A DNA stretch of 64,000 bases, from positions 12,898 through 76,897 of the forward strand of contig CBDBFU010000004.1 of assembly GCA_965205025.1 (NCBI GenBank), in the 5' to 3' direction. Below are positions 24,450-44,005 of the stretch, piece after piece. Origin of the DNA: Candidatus Poribacteria bacterium. GTDB taxonomy: Bacteria > Poribacteria > WGA-4E > WGA-3G. A program made the position numbers and the translations under genes. The notes under the pieces were generated by a model, which was given only the letters and a program-made list of their open reading frames with translations, did not search any database and was not told the DNA's origin. Numbering within the stretch: the first letter of the stretch is position 1; the number at the start of each line of letters is the position of its first letter.

Positions 24450-24717
24450 TAAGATTTCATTAATTCATAACGGGTAAACATTGATATCTTCTATTAATAG
24501 TATTCGGGAAAATTACCTATATATCATTTACAAGAATATCTACGGTTTGATATCCGCTGGACAGGAGTTATTCTATTCTGAATAAATGACTTGTTTTTTG
24601 TACACTAATAAACCTTAGATTCATCCAATAAAATAGAAAACATTACAAGAATAATTTGACATTCAATCTATTGTGATATTATAATTACTTCTATAAATTA
24701 AGACCAGCAATATCCAT

Positions 24718-24736
24718 GATATTGAGATACAATATC
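24718..24736. promoter_or_regulatory. Fur-box-like 19-bp palindrome ~100 bp upstream of the OM beta-barrel gene
   Basis: GATATTGAGATACAATATC is a perfect 7-5-7 palindrome with the same architecture as the two GATAATGAGATTCATTATC sites at 31589 and 36345. Confidence 0.35.
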
Positions 24737-24833
24737 ACAACAGATTAAATCTACAAGAAAATTATGTTGAATCAGTCAAAGTAAATATATTTGATATTGT
24801 GTCTCATTATCATATTTTCTTCTGAGATATATT

Positions 24834-26045
24834 ATGAAGTTATTTCGTGTTCTAATATTGATATGGACCTGCTTATACATTACTATCACTGCCAATGCTG
24901 ATGAAAAACCATTTTCTGTATCTGGTTATGGTGTAATAAACTACTCACATTTTAATTGGGACCTTGATCCAGATAGACGGGCTGCATTGGATTTAGAAAG
25001 ATTGGTTGTTGCCCCAAAATACCGCATTAACAACACTATTCGTCTTGAAGCTGAGCTTGAATTTGAACACGGTGGTACTGGTAGTACGATGGAATTTGAT
25101 AAATTTGAGGAATTTGGTGAATTTGAGTTTGAAATAGAAAAAGGTGGGGAAGTTATTGTTGAAAAACTTGCAGCGGTTTTCTCAATAAAACCTTCTTATA
25201 ACTTCCGTATCGGACATATCATCGTCCCTATAGGACTTGTGTCTAAACGTCATCGACCACAACACTATTTTACAACAACCCGTCCAGAAGCCGAAACACA
25301 CATCATTCCGACAATTTGGCACGAAACTGGAGTTGAAGTTTTTGGTTCATTTGGTCCAGTAAGTTACCAAGCACAAATTGTCAATGGATTAGACTCTACT
25401 GGATTTAGTTCAAGGTACTGGATTGTGCGAGGACATCAATTACGATTTGAAACTGTAAATGCTGAAACCCCTGCTTATGTTGGAAGACTCGATTATAACT
25501 TCCAGAAGAATGGAACCATCGGTGTCTCAGGTTATTATGGAGATACCGCTGCAAATCGACCTAAACCTGATGTTGACTTCAATGCAAACGTCGGGATTAT
25601 AGGTCTGCATGGTTTTTATGAGGAAAATGCAATTATACTACGTGGATTGTTCCTAATGGGAACTTTGGAAAATGCACATCTACTTTCAAAAGTCAATCGG
25701 ACATTATCCAATAATCTGAATGTTAAACGCACACCAATAGGTAGTTCAGCAATAGGATGGTATATTGAAGCAGGTTATGATGTCCTCTCTTTCTTAAAGA
25801 AAAATAAAGAAACACACCAAAGACTTGAGGTTTTTGGACGGTACGATTATTACGATACTATGGCAAGTGTGGAAGGCGTTATTTTTGATAATCCCCGATG
25901 GGAACGAAGAACTTGGACAATGGGTTTAAACTACCATGTCCACCCGCAATTAGTTTTCAAGAGTCATTATTCTTTACGAAGGTTAGCTACCAAGGAGAAA
26001 AACAAAGAAGATACATTTTCACTTGGTTTCGGTTTTCAATATTAA
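24834..26045 (+). CDS. outer-membrane beta-barrel (porin-like) protein
   Basis: Signal peptide MKLFRVLILIWTCLYITITANA. Alternating amphipathic beta strands. C-terminal ...FSLGFGFQY (terminal aromatic). Confidence 0.55.
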   Translation: MKLFRVLILIWTCLYITITANADEKPFSVSGYGVINYSHFNWDLDPDRRAALDLERLVVAPKYRINNTIRLEAELEFEHGGTGSTMEFDKFEEFGEFEFEIEKGGEVIVEKLAAVFSIKPSYNFRIGHIIVPIGLVSKRHRPQHYFTTTRPEAETHIIPTIWHETGVEVFGSFGPVSYQAQIVNGLDSTGFSSRYWIVRGHQLRFETVNAETPAYVGRLDYNFQKNGTIGVSGYYGDTAANRPKPDVDFNANVGIIGLHGFYEENAIILRGLFLMGTLENAHLLSKVNRTLSNNLNVKRTPIGSSAIGWYIEAGYDVLSFLKKNKETHQRLEVFGRYDYYDTMASVEGVIFDNPRWERRTWTMGLNYHVHPQLVFKSHYSLRRLATKEKNKEDTFSLGFGFQY

Positions 26046-26089
26046 TTTTTCAATTACTGAATAAAATGGAAATTCATAAGGAGGATATA

Positions 26090-27178
26090 ATGAATTTCAA
26101 TAAATGGATATCAATGTTGTCATGCCTGTGTGTTTTGGTATTTCTTTTGGGTTGTGGCGCTGAAGATGATACAGATGGAGACGACGAACCAAAGGCTGAA
26201 GCATTCCAATCCAGTACAATGCTAAATGATTTCGCGAATACTGTCGTTTTAGCAACCTATACGGAATTGGATAAGAAAGCAGGAGAACTATTGGATGCAG
26301 TTAAGGTATTGGAAAGTGATACCACACAATCAAATCTTGTGAAAGCACAAGAGGCATGGAAAGCCACACGTACACCGTGGGAACAGAGCGAAGCATTCTT
26401 GTTCGGACCGGTTGATACACAAGGTCTCGACCCCGCATTGGATAGTTGGCCAGTTGACCACGTTAACCTACAATCTGTGTTAGATAGCAATGACAACCTA
26501 ACAGTAGATTATGTCAATGGCTTAGAGGATACACAAAAAGGTTTTCATACAATTGAATTTTTATTATTCCGAGATGGAGATCAACGGAAAGCCTCAGATA
26601 TAACGGATCGTGAATTGGAATATCTTGTCTCAACAACAGAAAACCTTAAGGCAAGTACTTCACAACTACGATTAGCATGGGCACCAGAAGGTGAGAATTT
26701 CAGTAGTTCTGTTGCTCAAGCTGGAACAGGAAGTATTATTTACACATCTCAGAGCGCGGCTGTTCAGGAAATGGTTAACGGTATGATTACAATCGCCGAT
26801 GAAGTCGCAAACGGGAAAATATCCGACCCCTATAATGAATCAAACACCACACTTGTGGAATCACAATTCAGTTTTAATTCTATCTCTGATTTTCAAGATA
26901 ATATTAGAGGTATTCAAAATGTCTATCTCGGTAAATATATGAATGATGGACAAGGATTAAATGAATTTGTAAATACCAAAAATGCAGAATTAGATTCACG
27001 GTTTCAATCTGAAATACAAAATGCGATTGACACCATTGGGGCAATCCCTGATCCTTTCCGGGATTCTATTACTAAGAGTCGAAGTTCTGTACAGGCAGCA
27101 ATTGATGCCGTAAGTAAAGTTCAGTTAACTTTGGAACAAGATATTCTTCCACTTGTACAATCAAGTGAGTTCAATTAG
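26090..27178 (+). CDS. imelysin (Peptidase_M75/IrpA-like) family lipoprotein
   Basis: AGGAGG 6 nt before ATG 26090. Lipobox LLGCG. ...KAQEAWKATRTPWEQSEAFLFGP... matches the conserved imelysin core. The ORF track start 25898 overlaps the previous gene and is unlikely. Confidence 0.6.
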   Translation: MNFNKWISMLSCLCVLVFLLGCGAEDDTDGDDEPKAEAFQSSTMLNDFANTVVLATYTELDKKAGELLDAVKVLESDTTQSNLVKAQEAWKATRTPWEQSEAFLFGPVDTQGLDPALDSWPVDHVNLQSVLDSNDNLTVDYVNGLEDTQKGFHTIEFLLFRDGDQRKASDITDRELEYLVSTTENLKASTSQLRLAWAPEGENFSSSVAQAGTGSIIYTSQSAAVQEMVNGMITIADEVANGKISDPYNESNTTLVESQFSFNSISDFQDNIRGIQNVYLGKYMNDGQGLNEFVNTKNAELDSRFQSEIQNAIDTIGAIPDPFRDSITKSRSSVQAAIDAVSKVQLTLEQDILPLVQSSEFN

Positions 27179-27212
27179 ATAGATTTCAATACCCAAAACT
27201 CTATGACTATTA

Positions 27213-27254
27213 CTATTGTTGGGAATAGATTTTCTACTTTCCAACAATAGTTTT
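27213..27254 (+). terminator. rho-independent terminator candidate after the imelysin gene
   Basis: CTATTGTTGG ...18 nt... CCAACAATAG followed by TTTT. Confidence 0.45.
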
Positions 27255-27315
27255 AAAACAAAATCTTATATTTTCACTTGTTTTAGAACTAAGATTCAGC
27301 AGTTTTTAAAATTAT

Positions 27316-28718
27316 ATGAAGTATTTCAATGTAGTATTACTTTTTTCTATGATTTTCTTCATCAGTGGTTGTGAAACAGACCGTGAGACAGACAATTTAA
27401 ACAACACACAAACGAATTCAACCATTCCTCTGGCTGGAGGGGAAACAACTGTTTTTGATGCATCAAGTCATGCATTCTCCATCCCAGCACCAAATCTCTC
27501 AGCGGATGCTTTGAATAAACACCTTGAAGGGGATGTAGAATTTGAAGCTGTCTTTGTTACCTCCCCAGCAGTTGTGAATCCGGGATTGGGACCAATATAT
27601 AATAACGTCTCTTGTATTAATTGTCATTCTCGTGATGGACGTGGACGACCTCCCACTGTTAATGAAGAACTCGTTTCTTTACTATTCAGACTTAGTCTTC
27701 CCAATCCAAATAACATTGTAAATGGAAAACAACCTATACCTGTCCCCGGGTATGGCACCCAACTGAATAATCGGGCAATTTACGGAACACCTGCTGAAGG
27801 AAATGTTGACATTACCTATACAGAACAACCTATAGTAACATCAGATGGAACGAAAATACATCTACGATATCCAAGTTATTCTATAACAGATGCTTATCAT
27901 CCACTACCTGAAGACATTGAGGTATCCCCACGAGTAGCTCCAGTGGTATTTGGTCTCGGTTTGTTGGAAGCTATCCCTCAGGAAGTTATCCTTTCAAACG
28001 CAGATGAATCAGATGTTAATCAGGATGGTATATCAGGAAAACCTAATTTTGTTTGGGATGTAGTAAAAAAGCAATACGTCTTAGGACGATTCGGTTGGAA
28101 AGCAAACCAGCCAAACCTACTACAACAAGTAGCTTCAGCCTATCATGATGATATGGGGTTAACAACTTCACTGTTCCAGATGGAAAATTCAAAAGGACAA
28201 TCACAACATACTGAAGTAAGTACATCACCAGAAATAAGCGATGAGATATTGGATGTAGTGACATTTTATGTTCAAACATTAGCAGTACCAGCACGACGTA
28301 ATGTGGATGATCCTAAAGTAATTCAAGGAGAACAACTTTTTACACAAGCACAATGTGGTACATGTCACACCCCAACACACAGAACTGGTTTATTCCAGGG
28401 TATACCATCAGTAAGTAATCAAACAATTCATCCATACACCGACCTATTACTTCACGATATGGGACCCAGATTTAGCAGACAATCGTCCTGATTTTCAAGC
28501 AACTGGTACGGAATGGCGAACACCACCCTTATGGGGAATAGGTTTAGTACGGACTGTCAATGGCCACACCAATTTCCTACATGATGGTAGAGCTCGTGAT
28601 CTTATGGAAGCTGTTCTTTGGCACGGTGGTGAAGCTGAAAAATCTCGCAATATTACATTAGAGATGTCCCAAACTGAACGAAATGCATTAATTGCATTCT
28701 TAAATTCATTGTAATTCA
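27316..28718 (+). pseudogene. DUF1111 di-heme cytochrome c peroxidase-like (thiol oxidoreductase) lipoprotein, frameshifted near 28455-28465
   Basis: Lipobox FFISGCETD. Two CxxCH heme motifs (CINCHSRDG, CGTCHTP). Frame 1 ends ...LLHDMGPRFSRQSS*. The -1 frame continues DPDLADNRPDFQATGTEWRTPPLWGIGLV...HGGEAEKSR... to TAA 28716-28718, i.e. the normal DUF1111 C-terminus. The shift lies at GGGACCC. Confidence 0.65.
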
Positions 28719-28733
28719 ATTCCACAAAAGGAT

Positions 28734-28991
28734 ATGGGAATGAATCTAACTATAATGACCATTAATTGCAGTATATTAATAATAATGTTTTTAATTGGAC
28801 TTTGCTTTTGTGGTTGTGAAAGCGACCCAATACTATCTCCTCAAGTTGAAGTATCTGAGGAATCGGGTAGTTACGGAAATACAAACATTGAGATTAATGA
28901 ATCTGAAACCAGTTCAAATAAAGTGAATAATCAACAGAAAAGAAGAATTCGTAGCAAGTTTAACAAGAATACAAACCCTAAACTCTTCTAA
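28734..28991 (+). CDS. small putative lipoprotein (85 aa)
   Basis: Hydrophobic N-terminus with LIGLCFCGCESD lipobox-like motif. Confidence 0.35.
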   Translation: MGMNLTIMTINCSILIIMFLIGLCFCGCESDPILSPQVEVSEESGSYGNTNIEINESETSSNKVNNQQKRRIRSKFNKNTNPKLF

Positions 28992-29009
28992 GGTACAGGA
29001 TTATCTTTT

Positions 29010-31520
29010 ATGTATATTTTTACAGGTGTAGTTAACATATCAAAAACATGGAATAGATCCGTAATAATGATCTTGATGGTTACACTTCTCATGTGTATAG
29101 TCCATAGTTCCGAGGGAACAAACATAATTAGTGGTAAGGTCGTAAATAAAGAAACAAAACTCCCAATTTATGGAGCGACTGTTAAAATTGATTCAAAAGG
29201 ACATACCATACAAGAAACTTCAACCGATAGAGAAGGCAACTTTCATTTTACGCAAGATTGGCATGAGGATCAACAACTTCATGTCAATTCAGAAGGTTTT
29301 AATTTCTACAAGCAAGTACTATCATCTACTGGAGAGTTAGATGGTTTGGAAATAATGTTAACACAACAGCCTTTTGAGCTTGCACCCATCGAAATCATAG
29401 GTCAATCTTTACTGGAACATAAGAAATTACCGGGTACAATGACTAAGTTAGAACCAGAGACTGTTAATTTAATCAATCCTGTAGGAACCCAAGAATTACT
29501 TGAACTAATACCTGGAATCAATGGATATGCAGATGATGGTTTCGGGAACTCACGATTGAGTATTGGCATACGTGGTTTAAACCCGCGAAGAAGTGCCCGT
29601 GTGCTTTTGCTTGAAGATGGTGTCCCAATTCAACCCGCCGTATATATCTATCCAAATGCTTATTACAACCCACCAGCAGACCGTATTGATGCAGTCGAAG
29701 TTATTAAGGGTAGTGGAGCTATCCGCTATGGTCCACAGACTATGGGGGGTGTGATAAACTATACAACCCGAAAACCAACAGGAATACAAGGCTTAGCTAA
29801 TCAAATTACTTTGGGAAACAATGGATATTATAGTGGATTCTCAGAAATCAGAGGAATTGGAAGTCCTGATATCGTTGTCTCAGATGTACAACTTCTATAT
29901 AAACATGGGGATGGATTTAGAGATAATAATACTTTTGATCAATTCAATGGTACAGTGAAGACATTATTCCAATTGACTGAAGAAAAAACACTATACATGA
30001 AATTAAATGGGAATTATGAAAATTCAAATGCAACATATACAGGATTGACAGAGTATTCTTTTAGGACAAATCCGAATTTCAATCCAAAGAATGATGACAA
30101 TTTTAAAGTCATACGTACTTCACTTGACCTAATTTATACCAACAAGATATCAGATAACATAGTTAGTAATTCGACCCTATATTCAAGTCTTTTTGATCGT
30201 AGATGGTGGCGTGAGGATGATATTTTTGTTCGACCATCCTCATTTGACACAGGTAAATTAACACCAGTACCGTATTTCCAAAACGGAGACCTTATCAGAA
30301 CTGGTAATGGAAAGAGTAATTTTGGTATTCTGCGTACATTCTATGTTGGTGGAGTGGAGCAAAATTACGCATGGAAACATGGAATTGGTAGCAATTCAGC
30401 AAATGTAGACATTGGGGGCAGATTACATTGGGAAAGGTTTATTGACGATAGGAAAGTTGGTAATGCCCCTGATGCACGAGATGGAGTTTACTATACTGGT
30501 GTACAGGATTCAACTAAAGACCCTGTGAAGATTGTTGGACAAAGTCATCATTACGAAACTACTGCATTGGCACTCTACGCAGAAGAACAGATTGAATTTC
30601 AAAACTTGACTCTGATAACCGGTGTTCGGTATGAGCTATTTAAACAAGACCGTGTTGATAGATTACGCGGGTCAGTACTCGCTGATAAAGTATCTTCTGT
30701 ATTATTACCAGGTATTGGCGTAAATTATGAAGTAGGACATTTCAACTTTTTTGGGGGTATTCATAGAGGTTATACTGCACCTTCCAGCGGGGCATTAAAG
30801 ATAACTAATTTTGGACAGAATGTGGAATCTGGTGGACTTGACCTTGAACCTGAGAAAAGCTGGAATATGGAAGTTGGTGTTAGATCCTGGATACCGGGGA
30901 TTATCCTAGAGACATCCACCTTTTTGATTCAGATTGAAGATTTAGTCGCAGCGGGAAGAGGTACGGCATTTAAGAATTTAGGTAAGGTCAATCTATCTGG
31001 ACTCGAATTTGCAATGAAATTAGGTATATCAGAATTATCTTCAATTCTTCCAGATTTCAACTTTACATATACATACCTTCAAACAGAAATTATTGATGGA
31101 ATTATAAAGTCTGCTACTATAGCAGGTAATGTTGATGTAGATATAAATGGTAATGAATTACCCTATGCTCCACAACACACCTTTACAATAGGTTTGTCAA
31201 AATATTTATGGGATTCTATCCGTATGCGTGCAGATATGCGGTTTGTTGATGAAGTATTTACTGATTTTGAGAATCTACAACAAACCTTTAACCGAGGAGA
31301 CACTGGACCTATTCCAAGTTATTCAATTGTTAATGCAAGTATAGATTACAAAGTTTCACAACAATGGCAGCTATTTTTTACTGTCAAAAACCTATTAGAT
31401 CAAGTTTATATCGGGTCACGACTGCATTCAAATGCTGGTCAACCTGAAGCAAATCTAAGCTCAGGAATCTTAATTGGTCCGAGAAGACAGATATTATTTG
31501 GTATAAAACAAGGTATATAA
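29010..31520 (+). CDS. TonB-dependent outer-membrane receptor with N-terminal carboxypeptidase-regulatory-like domain
   Basis: ISGKVVNKETKLPIYGATVKIDSKGHTIQETSTDREGNFHF (CarbopepD_reg-like), then plug domain. Long beta-barrel. 836 aa. The real start is possibly ATG 29067. Confidence 0.8.
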   Translation: MYIFTGVVNISKTWNRSVIMILMVTLLMCIVHSSEGTNIISGKVVNKETKLPIYGATVKIDSKGHTIQETSTDREGNFHFTQDWHEDQQLHVNSEGFNFYKQVLSSTGELDGLEIMLTQQPFELAPIEIIGQSLLEHKKLPGTMTKLEPETVNLINPVGTQELLELIPGINGYADDGFGNSRLSIGIRGLNPRRSARVLLLEDGVPIQPAVYIYPNAYYNPPADRIDAVEVIKGSGAIRYGPQTMGGVINYTTRKPTGIQGLANQITLGNNGYYSGFSEIRGIGSPDIVVSDVQLLYKHGDGFRDNNTFDQFNGTVKTLFQLTEEKTLYMKLNGNYENSNATYTGLTEYSFRTNPNFNPKNDDNFKVIRTSLDLIYTNKISDNIVSNSTLYSSLFDRRWWREDDIFVRPSSFDTGKLTPVPYFQNGDLIRTGNGKSNFGILRTFYVGGVEQNYAWKHGIGSNSANVDIGGRLHWERFIDDRKVGNAPDARDGVYYTGVQDSTKDPVKIVGQSHHYETTALALYAEEQIEFQNLTLITGVRYELFKQDRVDRLRGSVLADKVSSVLLPGIGVNYEVGHFNFFGGIHRGYTAPSSGALKITNFGQNVESGGLDLEPEKSWNMEVGVRSWIPGIILETSTFLIQIEDLVAAGRGTAFKNLGKVNLSGLEFAMKLGISELSSILPDFNFTYTYLQTEIIDGIIKSATIAGNVDVDINGNELPYAPQHTFTIGLSKYLWDSIRMRADMRFVDEVFTDFENLQQTFNRGDTGPIPSYSIVNASIDYKVSQQWQLFFTVKNLLDQVYIGSRLHSNAGQPEANLSSGILIGPRRQILFGIKQGI

Positions 31521-31588
31521 TTTAGTGTATACAGATATAGAAATGTATTATAACATTTCTATATCTTGTATCTTCAAACTTAATTTTG

Positions 31589-31607
31589 GATAATGAGATT
31601 CATTATC
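31589..31607. promoter_or_regulatory. Fur box (17/19 match to consensus GATAATGATAATCATTATC) 21 bp upstream of gene 31628
   Basis: GATAATGAGATTCATTATC, perfect palindrome, identical to the site at 36345-36363. Confidence 0.6.
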
Positions 31608-31627
31608 CAAAAAATGTAAGGTGATTT

Positions 31628-32944
31628 ATGATAAATATTTCAAATAAACTACAATGGTTAACAGTTTTTCTAACAATTTCAATCCTATTTATTTGCGGAT
31701 GCGGTAGTGACGAAGATGATGATACTATAGATCAAACTGGTGAAGGGAAAATCCAAGTTCCTCAAGCGTATGTATTTGACAGTCGTTTCCAAGAGGGAGA
31801 AAGTAGTGTATCCTATTCTGGACAAGTTGTTCGAAATTTACTACTACAGGATCTGAAAGCAGTTACAGATAGTGTCGGAAAAGATAGTGGGAAAGCTGCA
31901 TCTGTAGATGATATGTTACAATTATATGAATACGACGATGCTTTGAACCTAAAAACAATTACTACCACTGGATCCGTACCTGCCCTTGAAAGTCAGTACT
32001 CTTCTCTATCAACTGGTAAGAATCTCGTTGGTAAAATCTCCGATGCTCCTGTTATCGGTTATAACCGGTCTGCCGATGATTTAGTACGAGAATGGTTCAA
32101 AGGAATATCGGACAACTCACAAGATTCGGATAAACTCGGTACTGCAATGGCTTATACTACCGAAGATGGTGTTGACATGTCTCAGATGATAAACAAAGTC
32201 CTTATTGGTGCTGTTCCCTACTATCAAGCAACTGGCGTTTACCTTGATACTCTACTTGAACGTGATAATAGTGAAGCAAGGGATGGTACAAAACCGTATA
32301 CTGCAATGGAACATGCATGGGATGAAGCTTTTGGTTATTTCGGGGCAGCTCGGGATTATGCTCGATATACCGATATACAACTGGCTGGATCAGTTGATGA
32401 TTTTACTTTTGATTCTAATGGTGATGGATCAATAGATTTCAATTCCGAGTACAATTTCGGTCTATCCAGAAATGCTGCTAAACGGGATAAAGGAGGTACA
32501 GGCGTTGATTTTACTACTGAAATCTTCAATGCATTCCTTGCCGGTCGGACTGCTATCACAAATCAAGGATCTGTCTCAGAAATAAGTGCACACAGACAAG
32601 CTGCTGCAAATGGCATGGAAAAAGTAATCGCCGCAACTGTTGTTCATTACATCAATGATACACTTAGTGATATGTCAAAGTTAGGGACAGACGAAGAGAA
32701 TCTTGCTAATCTAAATAAACATTGGGCAGAAATGAAAGGATATACAGTTGCATTACAGTATAATCCTTTCAAGTTAATTAGTGATGGTCAACTTAGGGAG
32801 TTACATGGTATCATGGGAACGGCTCCGAAGTACGATACACCCGGAACAGATGCCTATAAAACTCAGGTCACTAATTATCAACGAGCAAAAGATGTAATGC
32901 AGGCTGCTTACGGATTCTCAAATTCAAACATGGAGAACTGGTAG
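31628..32944 (+). CDS. lipoprotein, DUF4856-like (family often linked to imelysin/DUF1111 iron clusters)
   Basis: Lipobox LFICGCGSDEDDD. 438 aa. Preceded by a Fur box. Confidence 0.45.
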   Translation: MINISNKLQWLTVFLTISILFICGCGSDEDDDTIDQTGEGKIQVPQAYVFDSRFQEGESSVSYSGQVVRNLLLQDLKAVTDSVGKDSGKAASVDDMLQLYEYDDALNLKTITTTGSVPALESQYSSLSTGKNLVGKISDAPVIGYNRSADDLVREWFKGISDNSQDSDKLGTAMAYTTEDGVDMSQMINKVLIGAVPYYQATGVYLDTLLERDNSEARDGTKPYTAMEHAWDEAFGYFGAARDYARYTDIQLAGSVDDFTFDSNGDGSIDFNSEYNFGLSRNAAKRDKGGTGVDFTTEIFNAFLAGRTAITNQGSVSEISAHRQAAANGMEKVIAATVVHYINDTLSDMSKLGTDEENLANLNKHWAEMKGYTVALQYNPFKLISDGQLRELHGIMGTAPKYDTPGTDAYKTQVTNYQRAKDVMQAAYGFSNSNMENW

Positions 32945-33051
32945 GTAATACTCTAAGTTCGGACCCATATAAGGTTGAGTAGTTAAACAAAGGAAGATTA
33001 TCCACGTAATGGTTAATCTTCCTTTTTACATCTCTTGAAACGTCCAAAAAG

Positions 33052-34542
33052 ATGAACAAACAGGAACAAACAAACCATCTATTCACATGGGGATTTATCT
33101 TACTCTGTTGTATTGTTTCCCGTTTGTTAAGTACTATCTATTACATTGAAGATATAGACAGTCTAAGATTTGCATTGAGTATGCTGGAATATGATGTAGA
33201 AAAGTTACAACCTCATTTTCCAGCATATCCCGTCTTCTGTTTCCTAGCAAAATTCATTTATATCTTGACTGGACGGTACTCTATAGCATTTTCAATTATA
33301 GGAGGTATATCCACTTTTCTGATAATCTTCTTTACCTTAAAGATTGTTAAGATCAAATGCACTTCTCAATTGGGAATAATCGCTATCTTGATTTTATTCA
33401 TGAACCCTTTATTGTGGTTAATGAGTAATCGTTATATGCCAGATATTTTAGGTCTTGCATGTCTATTAGGAGCATTCTATTACATCTTAAAATCTATACA
33501 CAAGGATGGAAACAACTCATCATTTTATGGTTACATTGGATATTTTCTTGCAGCAATTTTGTCGGGAATAAAAATCTCATATATCCCATTATTGATACCA
33601 GTCCTATTAATCGGATTAAAAAACAATAATAGAATAAAGTTAATTATCGTAGGATGCATAGGGCTATTATTGTGGCTAATACCATTATTGTGGATGACAG
33701 GGTGGAAGACACTCTTAGGAAGTGCTCTGAACCAGACACAAGGGCACTTTACAGATTTTGGGGGTACAGTTTCAACAAATCCGGATTTATGGCTCCGTTT
33801 GAGTAAAATTATCGAGAGTATCGTTGCTGATGGGTTTGGATTATATTGGCTGGGACGTCATCTCATAACAGCTGTAAGCACTATCCTTCTCTTAGTTATA
33901 ATTTTCTCAAATTGGAAATCAATAGTAGGTAGAACTGAACAGAGTCTGTTTGGACAGAATCATATATACCACCAATCACTATTGATTGGTTGCATAATTT
34001 ATTCTGTCTGGTTATTTGTAGGACAGAATGTGATATATAAGAGTCGACATATAATACCATTATTACCTTTTTTCTCTATAGGAATAGCCATCGCATGTAA
34101 TCAAATGTTAATAAATGCGAAGAAGCAGACTGATTCAATACGTATGGTATTGAAAAGATGGTATCAATACAGCATTGGAATTCTTGTATGCTTTCTTCTT
34201 TGTTATAGTTTCGTTACAATACATACCGTCATTCAACATACAAGACCTACCGCAATAGCACAAATACAAAGATACTTACTCGAAAAAACATCTCAATCTA
34301 ACCATGAACTCAAAATTGTATCTGTTCCACTAATTAAATATTATTTGGTGTCCCAAGGAGTGAAAGCAGAATATATACCTATAAAATCTCCAAAAGATAT
34401 ACAACAACTTAATGATCTGAACAGTAAATATGTAGCAATTGGAACAAATTTACCTAATCGCAATCCAAAAAAGGAATTTACGTTTTACCATAACCCTTAT
34501 GTGAACAGAATGTGGTCAGAATTACATGTATATGAATACTAA
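33052..34542 (+). CDS. polytopic membrane protein, GT-C-fold glycosyltransferase-like (DUF2723/ArnT/PMT-type)
   Basis: >=10 predicted TM helices. First loop IEDIDSLRFALSMLEYD...QPHFPAYPVF resembles the D-x-x-E...HPPGYP motif of DUF2723 proteins. Confidence 0.45.
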   Translation: MNKQEQTNHLFTWGFILLCCIVSRLLSTIYYIEDIDSLRFALSMLEYDVEKLQPHFPAYPVFCFLAKFIYILTGRYSIAFSIIGGISTFLIIFFTLKIVKIKCTSQLGIIAILILFMNPLLWLMSNRYMPDILGLACLLGAFYYILKSIHKDGNNSSFYGYIGYFLAAILSGIKISYIPLLIPVLLIGLKNNNRIKLIIVGCIGLLLWLIPLLWMTGWKTLLGSALNQTQGHFTDFGGTVSTNPDLWLRLSKIIESIVADGFGLYWLGRHLITAVSTILLLVIIFSNWKSIVGRTEQSLFGQNHIYHQSLLIGCIIYSVWLFVGQNVIYKSRHIIPLLPFFSIGIAIACNQMLINAKKQTDSIRMVLKRWYQYSIGILVCFLLCYSFVTIHTVIQHTRPTAIAQIQRYLLEKTSQSNHELKIVSVPLIKYYLVSQGVKAEYIPIKSPKDIQQLNDLNSKYVAIGTNLPNRNPKKEFTFYHNPYVNRMWSELHVYEY

Positions 34543-34855
34543 TAGAAATGCAGAAGAGAATTAGTAGGTATGTGGTTCTCTAAACGACTATATAATAGTG
34601 TAATTTAAGACATATACACTTACATACCTCGGTAGGTGCTGTTTCCCGACGAATTCCTATCGGGAATACCTTAATGGCATTCATACCGTTGATTTGACGG
34701 ATTCGGTGTTGATTCCCCGCATTGGTTTTTAGTGTATCATAAACTTAAAATCTACCATATTATGACTTAATCACACAAACTGATTTTGTGAATCATTGTT
34801 CAGAAATAACATAAGACATTATCAATCTATTTTTGGTATCGGAGAAAAATTCATA

Positions 34856-36187
34856 ATGGAAATTCCTGATCTTCATATACTCGGTGGTGGGCCTGCAGGT
34901 TTAACGACAGGATATTATGCCAAGAAACACAATATCAATTTCCTTATATATGAAGCGGGGGAACAAGTTGGAGGGAACTGTCGTACACTTCAAATTGATA
35001 ACTTTTTGTTTGATACTGGAGCACACAGATTTCATGATAAAGACCAAGAAGCAACAAAAATAGTTAAAGAATTACTTGGAAATGATCTACAAAAGGTTGA
35101 TGCCCCAAGCCAGATTTACTTTAAGAGTAAATATTATTGCTTTCCATTGGTACTAAGTGATCTGGTTCAGAAACTGGATAGAAAAACTCTACTAAAAATC
35201 ATTTTTGAGAAACTGCAAAGTGGACAGATAAGGCATTTAGATAATTTTAAACAACTTGCACTGAAAAAGTATGGCAGTACGTTAGCAAACAATTTTCTAC
35301 TTAATTACTCTGAAAAACTATGGGGTGAGACACCAGAAAAACTATCTACATCAATTACTGGCAACAGACTAAAAGGATTAAACCTTTGGAGTTTTCTACA
35401 ATCTACCGTTCTGGGTACTCCAAAGAATCCAAAACACTTAGACGGAACATTTTTCTATCCAAAATACGGGATTGGAATGATTCCTAATAAACTCTCTGAA
35501 TTTATAGGTAAAGAACGGATTCACTTAAATCATAGAATTAGTCGTATTAATCATAATTATGAAAAAATTGAAAGTGTAATATTAAATGATGATCTGGAGA
35601 CACAGATTAAGTATGTTGTGAATACATTACCTTTAACATTATCAATTCGTTTGATGAATCCAAAACCCCCATCTGAATTATGTGAAGTAGCAAATTCAAT
35701 AAAATTTCGACATCTTGTTCTTTCAATATTCTGCTTAAATCGAGAATATTACACACACAATGCTTCACTTTATTTTCCAAGTGAAGACTTTCCATTTACA
35801 CGTTTGTATGAACCAAAAAACAGAAGCATTCACATGGCACCAGTTGGACAAACAGTAATTGTATTGGAAATCCCATGTTACACAGAAGATCCAATCTGGT
35901 CAATGGAAGACAATACTATTGAAAAAATAGTATGGGACGCTTTAAGTAAAGTTAAGACAATAGATGCAGAGGAGGTAATCCACAGTCAAATATATAGACT
36001 TCCTTTCGCTTATCCTGTTCTTGAAGTAGATTTCGAAGATAAAGTTAAGCAGCTGGTGTCTTATTTCGACCAATTTAATAATTTACTTCTGACCGGCAGG
36101 AGTTCGCTGTTCAGGTATCTACATCTACATGACCTTTTTCATGCAGGCAAAGATGTAATAAGTAAATTGCAACAATCAAACATATAA
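34856..36187 (+). CDS. FAD-dependent oxidoreductase (amine-oxidase/protoporphyrinogen-oxidase-like Rossmann family)
   Basis: GGAG RBS. N-terminal dinucleotide-binding motif HILGGGPAGLTTGYYA...YEAGEQVGGNCRT. Confidence 0.75.
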   Translation: MEIPDLHILGGGPAGLTTGYYAKKHNINFLIYEAGEQVGGNCRTLQIDNFLFDTGAHRFHDKDQEATKIVKELLGNDLQKVDAPSQIYFKSKYYCFPLVLSDLVQKLDRKTLLKIIFEKLQSGQIRHLDNFKQLALKKYGSTLANNFLLNYSEKLWGETPEKLSTSITGNRLKGLNLWSFLQSTVLGTPKNPKHLDGTFFYPKYGIGMIPNKLSEFIGKERIHLNHRISRINHNYEKIESVILNDDLETQIKYVVNTLPLTLSIRLMNPKPPSELCEVANSIKFRHLVLSIFCLNREYYTHNASLYFPSEDFPFTRLYEPKNRSIHMAPVGQTVIVLEIPCYTEDPIWSMEDNTIEKIVWDALSKVKTIDAEEVIHSQIYRLPFAYPVLEVDFEDKVKQLVSYFDQFNNLLLTGRSSLFRYLHLHDLFHAGKDVISKLQQSNI

Positions 36188-36344
36188 ATAATAATATAGA
36201 TAATAAATACCAATTTAAGTTGTAAATTACAAATTAAACTGAGAATATTGAAAAATAAATTTGACATTAATTAATAATTATAGTATTCTATCAATGCAGC
36301 AACCGTAATAAAGCATCTACTGCTTCAAAAACAGCCTCTATTAT

Positions 36345-36363
36345 GATAATGAGATTCATTATC
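36345..36363. promoter_or_regulatory. Fur box upstream of heme-degrading monooxygenase-like gene
   Basis: GATAATGAGATTCATTATC, identical to 31589-31607. Confidence 0.6.
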
Positions 36364-36537
36364 ATAATTAAAGGTTCTTTTGAATACTCCTTAGGAACAG
36401 ACGGTATAATACGAGGATAGGATTCTAACTACAACCGACTATACCTTAACTCGAATTTACCTTTGTTGAACAATGGTTCTGTTAGATGAATATGTCACAG
36501 AATCTACAAGGTCGTTTATTCAGTACATATTCACTAC

Positions 36538-36567
36538 GTTTGGTAGGGAGGTATATCCCTACCAAAC
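36538..36567. repeat. perfect 12-bp-arm inverted repeat (GGTAGG-type palindrome)
   Basis: GTTTGGTAGGGA-GGTATA-TCCCTACCAAAC, 48 bp upstream of ATG 36615. Confidence 0.5.
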
Positions 36568-36614
36568 CTACTGACATGTCATTATAATCTATTTACTAAT
36601 GTAGGAGACAGTTA

Positions 36615-36980
36615 ATGATTACTGTAGCAAATCGTATTTATGTAGCAGAAGACTATAAGGACGAATTTGAAAAAAGGTTTCGAAATCGAGCTAAACTTGT
36701 TGATGGAATGCCAGGGTTCATCTCAAATCAGGTGTTGCGACCTGTGAATGATGGTGATCCTTATATTGTCTTTACACTCTGGGAATCACGCAAAGATTTT
36801 GAGAACTGGGTTGATTCTGAGGAATTTCGGAAAGGGCATGCACAATCAGGAACGCTACCAAATGAAGCCTTCACACAATCAAACAAACTGGAACTACATG
36901 AGGTGTTTTTATATTCTGAGGAACCAGATTTGAAGGATGAACCATCAGGTGGTCCCTTCAAGATTCACCAAGAAGGATAA
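36615..36980 (+). CDS. antibiotic-biosynthesis-monooxygenase (ABM) domain protein, IsdG/HmoB-like heme-degrading monooxygenase candidate
   Basis: 121 aa. ...PGFISNQVLRPVNDGDPYIVFTLWESRKDFENWVDSEEFRKGH... is typical of ABM/IsdG. Preceded by a Fur box. Confidence 0.65.
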   Translation: MITVANRIYVAEDYKDEFEKRFRNRAKLVDGMPGFISNQVLRPVNDGDPYIVFTLWESRKDFENWVDSEEFRKGHAQSGTLPNEAFTQSNKLELHEVFLYSEEPDLKDEPSGGPFKIHQEG

Positions 36981-37199
36981 TTATACGCAGAAAAAGCGGC
37001 GAGTAGAACAAGGCATGCTCCAACTGGCAATTGATAGCAAATGCCGATGTTTCTAATGGAAATGATACATCTGGACTGATGATCTACAATCTCTCGCGTT
37101 TGATGGATCACACGCACAAGGTATGAACGTAGTCACCCTATGCCTTTTCTGCATTTATAAGAATACAACATTAGTATCTCAACTGTCAAGGGGAATTCA

Positions 37200-37922
37200 A
37201 TGGACAACAATGTAAATACTTCAAATAGGCATTCTGTAGGTAAAGATAGTAAAAAACCTGTAAAACGTAGAAGACGTTCACCATATTCCTTCTTACCGCT
37301 TAGATGGAGTCGAGGGAGTTTCCTAAAATGGCTTCGGAGAACGCATGCATGGTTAGGTCTTTGGGGAGCAGCATTAGGAATTCTGTTTGGTGTGACCGGG
37401 ATCCTTCTTAATCATAGAGGAAAGTTACAGATCAACGCAGCCCATACCGAACAGACAGAGCATGAATTGACTCTTCCCAAACAAAAACCAGAAAATATCG
37501 AAGAATTCGCATTATGGTTGAAGACAGAACTTAATATCAATAAGGAATGGAGTCGTATTCGTTCACAAAAGCCTCGTGAAATAAGTTGGGGTGGAAAATC
37601 TGTGACACAACCGGCAAGATGGAGTGTCAGTTTTAGTAATCCTAAAGGAGGTTACAGTGCAGATTATTGGGTCGGTAATACCTATACATCAGTACGACAT
37701 TTTAATAGGAATATATTTGCTTTTCTAAACCGATTACATATGGCAAGTGGATTAGGAGTCGGTTGGATTCTTCTTGCCGATACAATCGCAGGGAGCTTAA
37801 TTATCCTATCACTCTCAGGCATATTACTTTGGACCCGTTTACATGGTCCAAGACTTCTGGCAGCCAGCCTTGGTATAGGATCTATATGTATGGCAGTATA
37901 CTTCGTCTGGAGAGCCTTCTAA
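37200..37922 (+). CDS. PepSY-associated TM helix protein (PiuB-like)
   Basis: WLRRTHAWLGLWGAALGILFGVTGILLNHR is a PepSY_TM signature. 240 aa. Directly upstream of a TonB receptor. Confidence 0.7.
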   Translation: MDNNVNTSNRHSVGKDSKKPVKRRRRSPYSFLPLRWSRGSFLKWLRRTHAWLGLWGAALGILFGVTGILLNHRGKLQINAAHTEQTEHELTLPKQKPENIEEFALWLKTELNINKEWSRIRSQKPREISWGGKSVTQPARWSVSFSNPKGGYSADYWVGNTYTSVRHFNRNIFAFLNRLHMASGLGVGWILLADTIAGSLIILSLSGILLWTRLHGPRLLAASLGIGSICMAVYFVWRAF

Positions 37923-37940
37923 AAAGAAAAGGATCAACAC

Positions 37941-39935
37941 ATGCATTCAAGCAATTCGCTATATTTCTCAGGAGTAAATCGTCTTCAAAATTATGTTTCA
38001 GTAATATTGGTGAATTTATTCGTTGGAATGATTTTTTCCGTATCACCTATTATCGCAGAAATTGAATCCAATTCCTCAGAAGATATTGCTGTTGAATTAG
38101 ATCCTGTGGTCGTTACAGCAACAAAAACACCGCATCGTCTATCAGATTCACCTGTTATTACAGAACTAATTACTCGCGAAGAAATTGAAGCAACTGGCGC
38201 AGAAAACGTTGGTGAAGTATTAGAGTACAAATCAGGGGTAATCATACATCGAGATGGACATGGGGATGGTGTACAACTTCAGGGACTTGATTCTGAGTAT
38301 GTATTAATTCTCATAGATGGTGAACCACAGATTGGACGTATAGCTGGCAAACTGGATTTGGCACGACTCAGTATTGAAAATGTCGAAAGAATTGAAATAG
38401 TCAAAGGGGCAACTTCATCACTATTTGGCAATGCTGCACTCGCAGGAGTCATAAATATAATCACTCGAAAAGCTACCGGACCATTGGCAATTCAAATCTC
38501 TCAAAATATAGAACAATACAATAATTATGATAGTAGAGGAACTATTGAATTACATCAAGGGAATCTCAATGGGTTACTTTCATTAAGTGCCAATAGCAGA
38601 AATCCTATAGATTTTGATACATCTGATCTTACAACAACAATTGACGGATATGCCAATATCACAGGTTCATTACGCACAGAATATACCGTAACACCTACTA
38701 CAAATATACTGTTATCAGGACAATACTTTATTCAAGACCAAGAAGGTATTAGTGAGAACGGTCCAATTGTATTTGACAGACTGGGTGATATCGAGAACAT
38801 AAGTGCAACTTTAGGTATAATACGAGAATTTGACTTTGTGAGTATTGAAAATGTGGCTACTTCATTTTTCACAGGGAAAATATATTTAACACGATATGAT
38901 GATGTATCTACAGTAATCAATAGGAATACAGAGGAAACAACATCACAAAATATTAATATCCAAGATCTTATCAAAGGTGAAATCCAATTCGACACAACAC
39001 TATGGCAGAAACATCAATTGACCTTTGGTAGTGAGATAATTCTTGAGAATTTACAGTCGCAACGTATAAATGGAGGCGAACGTGAAATACTAACAAATTC
39101 GCTCTTCCTACAAAATGAGTATAGACCCTTCACTCCGGTTGCTGTTGTCATCGGAGGACGTTTAGATCATCACTCAGAATTCGGTAGTCATTTCAGTCCA
39201 AAATTGAGTTCGTTGTATAAAATCACAGATAATCTTCGGATACGTGCTTCCTATGGACAGGGTTTTCGAGCACCAGATTTTAAGAATCTATATCTCAACT
39301 TTACAAATGTCACATCCGGATATCAGGTATTAGGAAATGCATACCTACAACCCGAATCATCACATAACTGGAATATCGGGATTGACTATCATTTCTCAAG
39401 AGTCCTTATGGGTAGAATACACATGTATAGAAATGACTTACATAACCTGATTGAGGCAGAACGTATAGGTCAGAGTGTGTTAGGTGGAAGTAAATTTGAA
39501 TACCAAAATATTAACCAAGCATATACAGAAGGTGTTGATGTTGAAATCCTGTTAGGTAGTCTTGGGGGGTTCACATCAACAGTGGGTTATGCCTATCTCA
39601 GAGGGGCAGATAAAAACACAGGACTTCCTCTGCTCAACCGTTCTACACATAGCACAACCCTTAAATTTTCATATTTCCATCTCAAAAGTGGTTTTCGTGT
39701 TGACTTACGTGGCCGATATGCAAGCAAATGGGGTTTCTATGATGATGGGGACAAAATACTTGAACCCGAAGAACTCGCCCCAAGTTACTGGTTATGGAAC
39801 GTCCGAACTTCAAAAAGCCTTTTCAAATTGTTAAAAGTTTCAATAGGAATAAACAATGTTTTTGACTTCAAAATTCCCAGATATTATACATTTATCGGCC
39901 GTTCATTCTATGGTGGTTTATCACTGGATTATTAA
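37941..39935 (+). CDS. TonB-dependent receptor (heme/siderophore/cobalamin type)
   Basis: Signal peptide, TonB box DPVVVTATK, plug then beta-barrel. 664 aa. Confidence 0.8.
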   Translation: MHSSNSLYFSGVNRLQNYVSVILVNLFVGMIFSVSPIIAEIESNSSEDIAVELDPVVVTATKTPHRLSDSPVITELITREEIEATGAENVGEVLEYKSGVIIHRDGHGDGVQLQGLDSEYVLILIDGEPQIGRIAGKLDLARLSIENVERIEIVKGATSSLFGNAALAGVINIITRKATGPLAIQISQNIEQYNNYDSRGTIELHQGNLNGLLSLSANSRNPIDFDTSDLTTTIDGYANITGSLRTEYTVTPTTNILLSGQYFIQDQEGISENGPIVFDRLGDIENISATLGIIREFDFVSIENVATSFFTGKIYLTRYDDVSTVINRNTEETTSQNINIQDLIKGEIQFDTTLWQKHQLTFGSEIILENLQSQRINGGEREILTNSLFLQNEYRPFTPVAVVIGGRLDHHSEFGSHFSPKLSSLYKITDNLRIRASYGQGFRAPDFKNLYLNFTNVTSGYQVLGNAYLQPESSHNWNIGIDYHFSRVLMGRIHMYRNDLHNLIEAERIGQSVLGGSKFEYQNINQAYTEGVDVEILLGSLGGFTSTVGYAYLRGADKNTGLPLLNRSTHSTTLKFSYFHLKSGFRVDLRGRYASKWGFYDDGDKILEPEELAPSYWLWNVRTSKSLFKLLKVSIGINNVFDFKIPRYYTFIGRSFYGGLSLDY

Positions 39936-39939
39936 GACC

Positions 39940-39972
39940 TTCGGTAGGACGTGTCATGGCGTTCCTACCGAA
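39940..39972. repeat. GGTAGG-type REP-like hairpin after the receptor gene
   Basis: TTCGGTAGGACG-TGTCATGG-CGTTCCTACCGAA. No T-tract follows, so it is not a classic terminator. Confidence 0.45.
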
Positions 39973-40032
39973 TAATAGGGCGAAAAAACTACATTCAATA
40001 GTTATTTGCCTAAACACAAAAGGAGCAACTTG

Positions 40033-40680
40033 ATGAAAAGGTTAATGTGCATACACAACTTCATTCTTAGCACAACCACTCTTTTTATCTTAACATTCAG
40101 TATTTCACAATTAAATGTAAGTGCTGAAATTAACCACAAATCTTTGACTGTTGATGCGACTGATCGAGAGCAATGGGTATATTTTAACCTGTCTGAATCA
40201 GATGTTGTTGACATCAAAGATCCAACCACATCCCTCAAATGGGATATCGGATTTAAAAGGACTGCCATTATTACAAATGGTGGTATTAATGGTCCAGGAG
40301 AATCCGCTACATTGATATTAACTGACACATCCTTTGAAAGTGTTGATGTTGCCCCTGAGGGAGATTACATCTCAGATACCGATCAGATTGCTACATTTGC
40401 TCGTGGTGATGGGTGGTATACCTATACTGGTCCGCCAAATCACTGGATATTGGTAAATGATAAAATCTATATACTACGGACTGCTGCAGGTAATTATGCA
40501 AAACTCCGTTTTATCGGATATTATGAAAATAATGATACAAAAGAAGGTTCAGGATATATCAGTTTTGAATATGTCCTGCAGAATAATGGAAGTCGATTTT
40601 TTATTGACATATCCCCAGCTGATATAAACGCTATAAAGAAGTTAACTATCACGTGGGCAGAAGTTAAGAAAAATCGATAA
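40033..40680 (+). CDS. HmuY-like heme-binding lipoprotein candidate, copy 1
   Basis: AGGAG RBS then ATG 40033. Signal peptide. ...REQWVYFNLSESDVVDIKDPTTSLKWDIGFKRT...GWYTYTGPPNHWIL...YAKLRFIGYYENN... Paralogous to 41081-41767. Confidence 0.5.
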   Translation: MKRLMCIHNFILSTTTLFILTFSISQLNVSAEINHKSLTVDATDREQWVYFNLSESDVVDIKDPTTSLKWDIGFKRTAIITNGGINGPGESATLILTDTSFESVDVAPEGDYISDTDQIATFARGDGWYTYTGPPNHWILVNDKIYILRTAAGNYAKLRFIGYYENNDTKEGSGYISFEYVLQNNGSRFFIDISPADINAIKKLTITWAEVKKNR

Positions 40681-40803
40681 GTCTATATGTGCGAGGAATA
40701 ACTACAACTCCTCGCACATCTCAAATATGTCTTACATTAGTTTCAATAGAGGAATTAAACGAATTATCTAATTTACAACTTATCCCGTAAACAGGAGTGA
40801 CTT

Positions 40804-41034
40804 ATGGGTCAGAAAACAAAATACCTATCACATGACGAAATCTGTGCAGTTTATTCATGTCTTCAAGGTCATATACACGTTAGATTCCGATCCTTGGATA
40901 TTACAATGGAACCGGAAGAATTTTCTCAATTTACGAGTGTATTGTTTGATGCTTTCAAAACCCTGCGTGAGGCAAACAAACCTATTAACGAAGAGGTTAA
41001 TTTGGAAGATATTGAAGTCTTACCTAAAGTCTAA
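40804..41034 (+). CDS. small hypothetical protein (76 aa) between the two HmuY-like genes
   Basis: Protein-like composition (HVRFRSLDITMEPEEFSQFTSVLFDAFKTLREANKPINEE). No homology recognised. Confidence 0.3.
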   Translation: MGQKTKYLSHDEICAVYSCLQGHIHVRFRSLDITMEPEEFSQFTSVLFDAFKTLREANKPINEEVNLEDIEVLPKV

Positions 41035-41080
41035 ATTTTATTTGACGGTCAAAGTATCGTCCATTAGAGGTTATTTAATC

Positions 41081-41767
41081 ATGGATATTATCAAAGATTA
41101 CTTCACTTGGCGAATTGTTGTTTGGATTATGTTATTTCTGGGTATATTCATTCTCTTTAGTTGCAGGGCAGCTGATAACGAAGGACTTGAGCAAGTCCTT
41201 ATAGATTCAAAGGCAACCGATGATACAAACAATATTTCTGTAACCCCAGATAATAATGAACCATTGGATGAACCAATTAAGTTAGATACATTGACATTTA
41301 CCGTTGATGCAACCAGTAGAGAACAATGGTCATACTTCTCTTTTCAGTCAGGAAATATCGTAGATATTGAGGATCCACTCAATTCGGAAGAATGGGATAT
41401 CGGTTTTAAACTAACACAGGTTAAATTAAATGGTGGAGTCAGTGGTCCAGGAATGGGAAGTGTTGTCATGCTTACAGAGACTACCTTTGAAGAGGTAACA
41501 ATTGCCCCAGAAGATGGATACCGTTCCGACTCAGAAGACACCCTCGCTATCGTACCACAGAGTGAGAAAGGTTGGTACGTTTATACTGGACCACCTACAC
41601 ATTGGGTATTACCGCTTGAGGATCGTGTATTTGTAATGAAAACTGCAGATGGTACATATGCGAAAGTTCGTTTCGTTGGATACTATAAAGATAACGAAAA
41701 AAAAGAAGACAGCGGATTCGTTACCTTGGATTATGTACATCAACCAGATGGAAGTCGGAACTTTTAA
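41081..41767 (+). CDS. HmuY-like heme-binding lipoprotein candidate, copy 2
   Basis: AGAGG RBS then ATG 41081. Lipobox ILFSC. ...REQWSYFSFQSGNIVDIEDPLNSEEWDIGFKLT...GWYVYTGPPTHWVL...YAKVRFVGYYKDN... Confidence 0.5.
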   Translation: MDIIKDYFTWRIVVWIMLFLGIFILFSCRAADNEGLEQVLIDSKATDDTNNISVTPDNNEPLDEPIKLDTLTFTVDATSREQWSYFSFQSGNIVDIEDPLNSEEWDIGFKLTQVKLNGGVSGPGMGSVVMLTETTFEEVTIAPEDGYRSDSEDTLAIVPQSEKGWYVYTGPPTHWVLPLEDRVFVMKTADGTYAKVRFVGYYKDNEKKEDSGFVTLDYVHQPDGSRNF

Positions 41768-41974
41768 AATTAATCCATTTAGTGATTAATACATATGTAA
41801 GAGGGAAGAAGCATAGGTCTTTACTTAGTATATACAGAAAAACTGAACAATGAGTTCATGAAGGGTTGGATATGAAACTTGTATAAAACAATATGCTGTA
41901 GCATATTGGCGCACAAAATCTCCTTAATTAAAACAGATTTCATATCCAATCAATCATCTTCAAGAGGAATAGAA

Positions 41975-42943: not shown

Positions 42944-42957
42944 GAACATTCCAGAAC

Positions 42958-43953: not shown

Positions 43954-44005
43954 ATAAATGTCAGTAATTGGATTTAAATTTAATTTAGTACATTGAGGTG
44001 CTTTC

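Follow-up and report, generated by a model that had tools for sequence, protein, structure and literature searches.

Which regulator controls the iron and haem genes of Candidatus Poribacteria, and do its binding sites stand out in the DNA around those genes? The window analysed here, a stretch of 64,000 nucleotides from a Poribacteria contig, contains a block from 24.8 to 45.3 kb in which every gene is encoded on the + strand and relates to iron or haem according to Pfam and NCBIfam. A sequence-only reading had pointed to two identical 19-mers and a third variant within this block as Fur boxes. We conclude that four palindromes in the block are most probably operators of a Fur-family iron-sensing repressor, as judged from sequence and its conservation. 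The regulon is conceptually of the standard Fur type and is newly delineated in an uncultured sponge-symbiont phylum. None of the literature that we searched described regulatory sites of Poribacteria, and searches for Poribacteria together with Fur, and for the exact motif, returned no prior description.

Palindromes and genes of the iron and haem block

The sequence GATAATGAGATTCATTATC is present in two exact copies on the + strand, at 31589–31607 and 36345–36363, just as the sequence-only reading had stated. The third variant, GATATTGAGATACAATATC, lies on the + strand at 24718–24736. That list was one site short: a fourth palindrome, GATAATGAGACACAATATC, is found on the − strand at 24793–24811. 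The sites are as follows.

24718–24736, + strand: box A, GATATTGAGATACAATATC, 22.6 bits; candidate distal operator of the porin-like operon
24793–24811, − strand: box B, GATAATGAGACACAATATC, 27.1 bits; 22 nt 5' of the ATG at 24834, overlapping a weak promoter-like site at 24791–24818
31584–31612 with core 31589–31607, unstranded: DUF4856 box, 25.7 bits; 20 nt separate its end from the ATG at 31628
36340–36368 with core 36345–36363, unstranded: ABM box, TGATAATGAGATTCATTATCA, 30.8 bits; 251 nt separate its end from the ABM ATG

Both exact copies agree with the Fur consensus GATAATGATAATCATTATC at 17 of 19 positions, which reproduces the match reported earlier and leaves two positions that differ; the palindromes at 24718 and 24793 agree at 14–15 of 19. 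A 7-5-7 symmetry had been ascribed to all three sites then known. It applies to the palindrome at 24718 only, whereas the exact copies have the symmetry 8-3-8 (GATAATGA-GAT-TCATTATC), one base pair short of 9-1-9. Together with their flanks, the exact copies form perfect 13-3-13 palindromes at 31584–31612 and 36340–36368. The five flanking bases differ between the two copies, and a segmental duplication as their common source was rejected because the flanks show no similarity; the identity of the copies is therefore not a trace of duplication.

Allowing up to three mismatches to GATAATGAGATTCATTATC on both strands gave 6 matches in the window, against 0.04 expected from dinucleotide-preserving shuffles. 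A symmetrized position weight matrix returned four matches in the 64-kb window, at 22.6–30.8 bits, followed by a next-best score of 8.8 bits, and no match of 14 bits or more in shuffled sequence; the matrix was trained on the same Poribacteria loci in which it counted, which inflates the bit scores and leaves the positional statistics unaffected. A Fur-like 19-mer at 53069–53087, inside a STAND-NTPase gene, reached 6.2 bits and was rejected as a chance match. All four palindromes are intergenic and are located in the three largest intergenic gaps of the block, whose genes are arranged as follows.

24834–31520, + strand: operon 1, from Pfam and NCBIfam matches; gene order kept in all relatives
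24834–26045, + strand: porin-like beta-barrel (operon 1)
about 26030–27178, + strand: imelysin/EfeO-like protein (operon 1)
27316 to about 28714, + strand: di-haem DHOR gene with a 1-nt frameshift near 28466–28468 (operon 1)
28734–28991, + strand: 85-aa lipoprotein-like ORF (operon 1)
29010–31520, + strand: TonB-dependent receptor with a CarboxypepD_reg domain (operon 1)
31533–31566, + strand: AT-rich hairpin of 14 bp just 3' of the TonB-receptor stop codon, with hairpins at the equivalent place in relatives
31628–36187, + strand: operon 2, putatively co-transcribed
31628–32944, + strand: DUF4856 lipoprotein-like protein (operon 2)
33052–34542, + strand: polytopic membrane protein of 496 aa with a weak PMT_2/GT-C-like match (operon 2)
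34796–36187, + strand: FAD amine-oxidase or UDP-galactopyranose-mutase-like oxidoreductase (operon 2)
36615–44692, + strand: operon 3; gene order kept in relatives, no internal boxes
36615–36980, + strand: ABM/HmuQ-IsdG-like haem-degrading protein (operon 3)
37200–37922, + strand: PepSY_TM protein (operon 3)
37941–39935, + strand: TonB receptor (operon 3)
40006–40680 and 40832–41767, + strand: two HmuY-domain proteins (operon 3)
41879–42943, + strand: Peripla_BP_2 protein (operon 3)
42958–43953, + strand: FecCD permease (operon 3)
44006–44692, + strand: ABC ATPase (operon 3)
44862–45317, + strand: Dps/ferritin-like gene closing the cluster, with no box of its own

The genes named earlier as lying behind the boxes are indeed the porin-like gene at 24834, the DUF4856 gene at 31628 and the ABM gene at 36615; the last, however, does not directly follow its box, which is 251 nt away. 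The AT-rich hairpin at 31533–31566 likely ends operon 1. Within operon 2, the genes are separated by gaps of 108 and 254 nt that contain neither a box nor a terminator-like element. Whether the Dps/ferritin-like gene belongs to the regulon is uncertain.

Several of the gene assignments are weak. The best NCBIfam matches of the ABM protein are HmuQ and IsdG, at scores below the family cutoffs (59.6 bits versus 130). The membrane protein at 33052–34542 matches PMT_2 in Pfam with an E value of 7.7e-4 and 20.2 bits, below the cutoff of 26.1, and has no NCBIfam match and no sequence relative in the PDB. A PDB sequence search with the DUF4856 protein returned nothing, and an exact-protein look-up of its product found no record. 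The small ORF at 28734–28991 has a signal- or lipobox-like N-terminus (...LIGLCFCGCESD...) and belongs to no known family; every Poribacteria locus has it immediately 5' of the TonB receptor, and in 21 of 43 it has its own box. In the DHOR gene, a 1-nt insertion at 28466–28468 relative to three Poribacteria loci (L001, L002 and L028; GGGACCCAGATTT versus GGGACC[C/G]-GATTT) shifts the last ~72 codons (28493–28714, ...HDGRARDLMEAVLWHGGEA...) into another frame, which reflects either a pseudogene or an assembly error.

Elsewhere in the window, an N6_N4_Mtase DNA methylase (55624–58710), a DDE_Tnp_1 transposase (59088–60479) and a ResIII/SNF2 helicase (60571–63720) together look like a type III-like restriction–modification locus interrupted by an IS element (55624–63720). 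Two large WD40-repeat proteins and an 850-aa STAND-type NTPase are encoded at 5358–7295, 21257–23125 and 50606–53158; WD40-repeat proteins are typical 'eukaryote-like' proteins of Poribacteria, and their abundance agrees with the origin of the window.

Boxes in relatives and in unrelated metagenomes

To follow the boxes beyond the window, we used a search of the genome collection with the DUF4856 protein, which yielded 57 loci; 44 of these are MAGs or chromosomes of Candidatus Poribacteria, with 71–94% identity. At a threshold of at least 12 bits, the 44 Poribacteria loci contain 208 boxes, all of them outside mapped coding sequence, which makes up 66% of the DNA. The sequence-only reading had named many copies at non-promoter locations as the result that would speak against it; there are none in the window and none among the 208 in the relatives' mapped coding DNA. 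Boxes recur at orthologous promoters, being found before the porin-like gene in 40 of 40 loci, before the DUF4856 gene in 36 of 43, before the ABM gene in 28 of 32 (one or two boxes) and before the small lipoprotein or TonB-receptor gene in 21 of 43. No box precedes an internal operon gene in any of the 44 loci. When the 44 regions upstream of the DUF4856 gene were aligned, the box, the Shine–Dalgarno sequence and the ATG emerged as the only conserved islands in otherwise unalignable DNA.

The Poribacteria consensus, TGATAATGAGACTCATTATCA, is a perfect 9-1-9 palindrome in which only positions 9 and 11, the innermost of the two arms, depart from the E. coli Fur box. Both arms are invariant at G1, A2, T6, G7 and A8. 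The central base alternates between A and T among orthologous boxes, as expected for recognition by a symmetric dimer. The most divergent Poribacteria, with a GC content of ~0.5, keep the core TGAGnCTCA, while their outer GATAAT arms are degenerate. In two of these, L038 and L040, a different palindrome, GGTTAAATTTTTAACC, takes the place of the box ~30 nt before the DUF4856 gene (around position 9960); in both, a Fur-type box remains at a more distant upstream position, ahead of the gene for the small lipoprotein. Extra boxes in other Poribacteria (L013:1339, L005:231 and L036:752/853) precede genes for a WD40 beta-propeller, a DUF5916/CBM9 protein and a methyltransferase–nitroreductase pair, which are candidates for unexpected members of the regulon.

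These data bear on the idea that the palindromes act as RNA or DNA hairpins, such as terminators, attenuators or REP-like repeats, and not as protein-binding sites. Both exact copies are perfect 13-3-13 palindromes, a terminator scan flags 31584–31612, and the box at 36345 is probably transcribed from an upstream promoter, all of which would suit a hairpin. The stems, however, are rich in AT, enclose a loop of 3 nt and are not followed by a U-tract, where a terminator or REP element calls for a GC-rich stem with a U-tract at gene 3' ends or for dispersed copies. All copies are found ahead of iron genes, and none occurs elsewhere at the 3' end of a gene. What is kept at four to five positions in 44 genomes is the sequence itself and not pairing alone, with arm positions that do not vary. 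We regard a purely structural role as extremely improbable.

The boxes also bear on the genes that the sequence-only reading had tied to iron or haem metabolism despite their lack of functional assignment. For DUF4856 this link is direct, with a box in 36 of 43 genomes. The membrane protein and the FAD enzyme can be connected to iron only by inference, because they share a strand and an invariant synteny with the TonB receptor and DUF4856 and because no box or terminator-like site intervenes. The module of TonB receptor, DUF4856, membrane protein and FAD enzyme is syntenic in the 44 Poribacteria loci and in eight loci assigned to other phyla. The latter (L041–L047 and L050) are MAGs labelled Gemmatimonadaceae, Latescibacterota and Rhodothermales, with a GC content of 0.49–0.70 and DUF4856 proteins up to 71% identical to that of Poribacteria; horizontal transfer among sponge symbionts could account for their four-gene module, as could mis-binning. 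Neither a Poribacteria-type nor a classical box was found at these outgroup loci or at Bacteroidota DUF4856 loci.

Exact matches to the pattern GATAATGAGAYTCATTATC were found in 90 metagenome stretches, corresponding to 47 independent sequence contexts, of which at least 29 are intergenic. The neighbours of the intergenic copies are enriched in Peripla_BP_2, ZnuA, FUR, FecCD, NEAT and FeoB, and one organism carries the identical 21-mer upstream of a Fur-family gene, 12 nt from its start. Several copies that had been called coding turned out to sit in over-extended ORF calls before a P-type ATPase or flavodoxin-like gene. Copies within family-2-like glycosyltransferase genes were set aside as a coding coincidence: there the 19-mer encodes a conserved peptide, TEDNEIHYRM, containing the DNEIHY/DNESHY motif, and is not an operator. 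One such gene of a gut bacterium accounts for 23 of the 90 stretches (L064, L084 and 21 further gut loci).

A subsurface metagenome carries, in this order, a Fur gene, the identical 21-mer box and a porin-like homologue (L099:7535–8004, and likewise L130), with a second box of 7-1-7 type (TGATAACAATTATCA) upstream of fur. The porin-like homologue shares 24% identity with the window protein (E value 9e-12). A poribacterial origin of the Fur-family genes beside the 19-mer in metagenome contigs could not be demonstrated: the relatives of the L099 Fur are subsurface and Desulfobacterota-like proteins and not those of Poribacteria, and the likeness of the L099 proA gene to a Poribacteria locus proved unspecific.

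A regulator of an unrelated family, of the DtxR/IdeR, Rrf2 or Xre type, might instead read a palindrome that merely resembles a Fur box. A tblastn search with E. coli Fur of the window and of the 21-kb loci from the 44 relatives found no Fur-family gene, and the divergent Poribacteria preserve TGAGnCTCA best while the GATAAT arms degenerate, both of which would be compatible with such a regulator. Yet the cluster encodes no transcription factor of any kind, the window sites agree with the Fur consensus at all 16 outer positions, and in other bacteria the same 19-mer stands directly before Fur-family genes, as expected for autoregulation. Known DtxR/IdeR and Rrf2 operators, moreover, differ in sequence and are unlike the Fur-type palindrome. 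Recognition by one of these families thus appears very unlikely.

Somewhat less remote, although still unlikely, is binding by another Fur-family paralogue, such as a PerR-like, Zur/Mur-like or Irr-like haem sensor, in place of Fur proper. Operators of the Fur family are all variants of one AT-rich inverted repeat, and the central GAG/CTC is unlike the E. coli Fur consensus. Some metagenomic 19-mers precede ZnuA-type genes, which possibly belong to Zur or Mur regulons, so that the 19-mer alone does not discriminate among Fur paralogues. The cluster also includes a di-haem protein of peroxidase-like type, and its last gene is Dps-like. Against this, no separate box accompanies the Dps-like gene, and most targets are those of a typical Fur regulon: TonB receptors, HmuY, a haem ABC importer, a haem-degrading enzyme and imelysin (PMC3143127). 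No catalase, AhpC, ribosomal-protein paralogue or ZnuABC component is annotated in the boxed operons. Targets in TonB-dependent and haem uptake are not those of PerR or Zur, and only the di-haem peroxidase-like gene is ambiguous in this respect.

The assignment to Fur therefore remains our preferred reading. As in known Fur boxes, the sites are 19–21-bp AT-rich inverted repeats close to GATAATGATAATCATTATC; they lie 5' of iron genes (4 of 4 in the window, with 208 of 208 in relatives outside mapped coding sequence) and are conserved at orthologous promoters at the frequencies given above. A sequence close to the window box, GATAATGAGAATCATTATT, has been listed in the literature among Gram-negative iron boxes (PMC10665472). 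Those parts of the earlier proposal that could be tested computationally have held: the 17-of-19 sequence match, the intergenic position before iron genes, the conservation across ~44 genomes and the Fur and metal-related neighbours in metagenomes.

Promoters and the leader of the ABM gene

Two promoter matches precede boxes in the window.

24656–24685, + strand: sigma-70-type promoter of operon 1 (TTGACA, 18-nt spacer, TATAAT; 12 of 12 positions match)
36261–36289, + strand: conserved promoter 5' of the ABM box (A-tract, TTGACA, 17-nt spacer, TATTCT)

In the window, the operon 1 promoter ends 32 nt before box A; in most relatives, a TTGACA-17-TATAAT promoter ends 5–8 nt before it. At the ABM promoter, TTGACA is invariant in the alignment of relatives and the −10 element is TATAAT in most of them, with the box starting 55 nt downstream of the −10 hexamer in the window. 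The DUF4856 box itself begins with GATAAT, which could be the −10 element. For two of three window operators, the best promoter matches thus end 32 and 55 nt upstream of the box and do not overlap it, which makes the geometry of repression uncertain. Near-perfect TTGACA-N17/18-TATAAT elements with upstream A-tracts are kept across Poribacteria (24656–24685, 36261–36289 and the alignments), and this indicates a canonical sigma-70 promoter architecture in the phylum.

The ~250 nt that separate the ABM box from its gene contain the following elements.

36364–36614, + strand: conserved non-coding leader, from the 36345 box to the ABM gene
36387–36397, + strand: C/U-rich anti-Shine–Dalgarno-like motif, CTCCTTAGGAA
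36538–36567, + strand: GC-rich hairpin of 12 bp
about 36580–36600, + strand: decayed remnant of a proximal box
36603–36607, + strand: Shine–Dalgarno sequence AGGAG

Leaders at this position fall into three types. Type A comprises ~155 nt between a distal and a proximal box and is found in 20 genomes with 74% column identity. Type B occurs in four genomes and type C in the clade of the window, where the proximal box has been lost; only B and C are mutually alignable, with 72% column identity over seven genomes. Counterparts of the window leader are found, for example, at L004:14436–14589 and L014:15638–15912, and a type-A profile did not detect the window leader. All types, in 27 genomes, share the C/U-rich anti-Shine–Dalgarno motif and a GC-rich hairpin just upstream of the ABM gene. 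The hairpin core shows compensatory changes across these 27 genomes, alternating among GGCGGGG/CCCCGCC, GGCGAGG/CCTCGCC, GGTGAGG/CCTCACC and GGTAGGG/CCCTACC.

Folding of the window leader gives a z-score of −3.39, and the minimum-free-energy structure pairs CUCCU with the ABM Shine–Dalgarno sequence. For type A, 89.8% of cells are paired in the consensus structure versus 40–53% in slid controls, and 26 cells carry double changes versus 8–14 in the controls, with two more robust measures not reaching significance. Small ORFs in the leader were rejected as coding, since the indels are not multiples of three. The window gave no Rfam match at gathering thresholds, and the best hits in an E-value scan of 36200–36660 scored 14–20 bits, far below the cutoffs. 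The leader at 36364–36614 is probably a structured RNA. We propose only tentatively, and with doubts, that it is an iron-gated regulatory RNA, either a cis leader in which CUCCU sequesters the ABM Shine–Dalgarno sequence or a small RNA under Fur control with its end at the GC hairpin. For the window clade, a cis leader of the ABM operon is the more likely of these two forms. If true, the leader RNA would add a second, post-transcriptional layer to the control of haem uptake in Poribacteria.

Proposed mechanism and comparison with known systems

When iron is sufficient, metal-loaded Fur dimers would bind the 19–21-bp boxes (consensus TGATAATGAGACTCATTATCA) and block the three co-directional units, operons 1, 2 and 3. 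The block could arise by occlusion of the −10 and start region, or as a roadblock just downstream of the sigma-70-type promoters. Upon iron scarcity, the repressor would be released and the whole ~20-kb iron and haem acquisition island expressed. These steps are taken over from Fur as established elsewhere; the identity of the binding protein, its iron dependence, the choice of occlusion or roadblock and the operon boundaries are likewise inferred.

As an ordinary iron-control system, this arrangement will not surprise a specialist. The operator model TGATAATGAGAYTCATTATCA can be used to predict the iron regulon of Poribacteria from MAGs, and predicted iron control beside a TonB receptor provides a functional hint for DUF4856, the small lipoprotein, the membrane protein and the UDP-galactopyranose-mutase-like flavoenzyme.

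The ABM leader resembles the small RNAs RyhB, PrrF/PrrH, FsrA and HrrF in being conserved non-coding DNA behind a Fur-type box and near haem-uptake genes, and in having a C/U-rich anti-Shine–Dalgarno motif and a terminal GC hairpin. Unlike these Fur-controlled RNAs, it has no Rfam match and no U-tract after the hairpin; the HrrF model reaches 17 bits in this region, against a cutoff of 77, and does so on the wrong strand.

Operon 3 recalls the HmuY/HmuR loci of Bacteroidota and IsdG/HmuQ, with HmuY beside a TonB receptor, a Peripla_BP_2/FecCD/ABC importer and an ABM protein. The window differs in its two HmuY paralogues, its PepSY_TM gene, its long, probably structured leader and an ABM protein that scores below the family cutoffs.

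Imelysin and di-haem operons are Fur-regulated in Pseudomonas aeruginosa and Vibrio cholerae (PMC3143127). In P. aeruginosa PA4370–4373 and V. cholerae VC1264–1266, as in operon 1, imelysin-like and DUF1111/DHOR di-haem genes are adjacent behind a Fur-type operator. Compared with these operons, the window adds a porin-like gene before this pair and a small lipoprotein and a TonB receptor after it, has only one imelysin paralogue and carries a frameshift in the di-haem gene.

Finally, the boxes can be set against the E. coli and Gram-negative Fur box (GATAATGATAATCATTATC), which is described as 9-1-9 or as two overlapping 7-1-7 motifs. The innermost arm positions are G/C in Poribacteria (TGAGnCTCA) instead of T/A (TGATnATCA). 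In contrast to the classical box, several Poribacteria boxes are downstream of the best promoter match, and these putative operators come from an uncultured candidate phylum. Both are 19-bp AT-rich repeats with 8+8 identical outer positions, both extend to a 21-mer through a flanking T and A, and both are found at iron-uptake promoters, often as tandem pairs.
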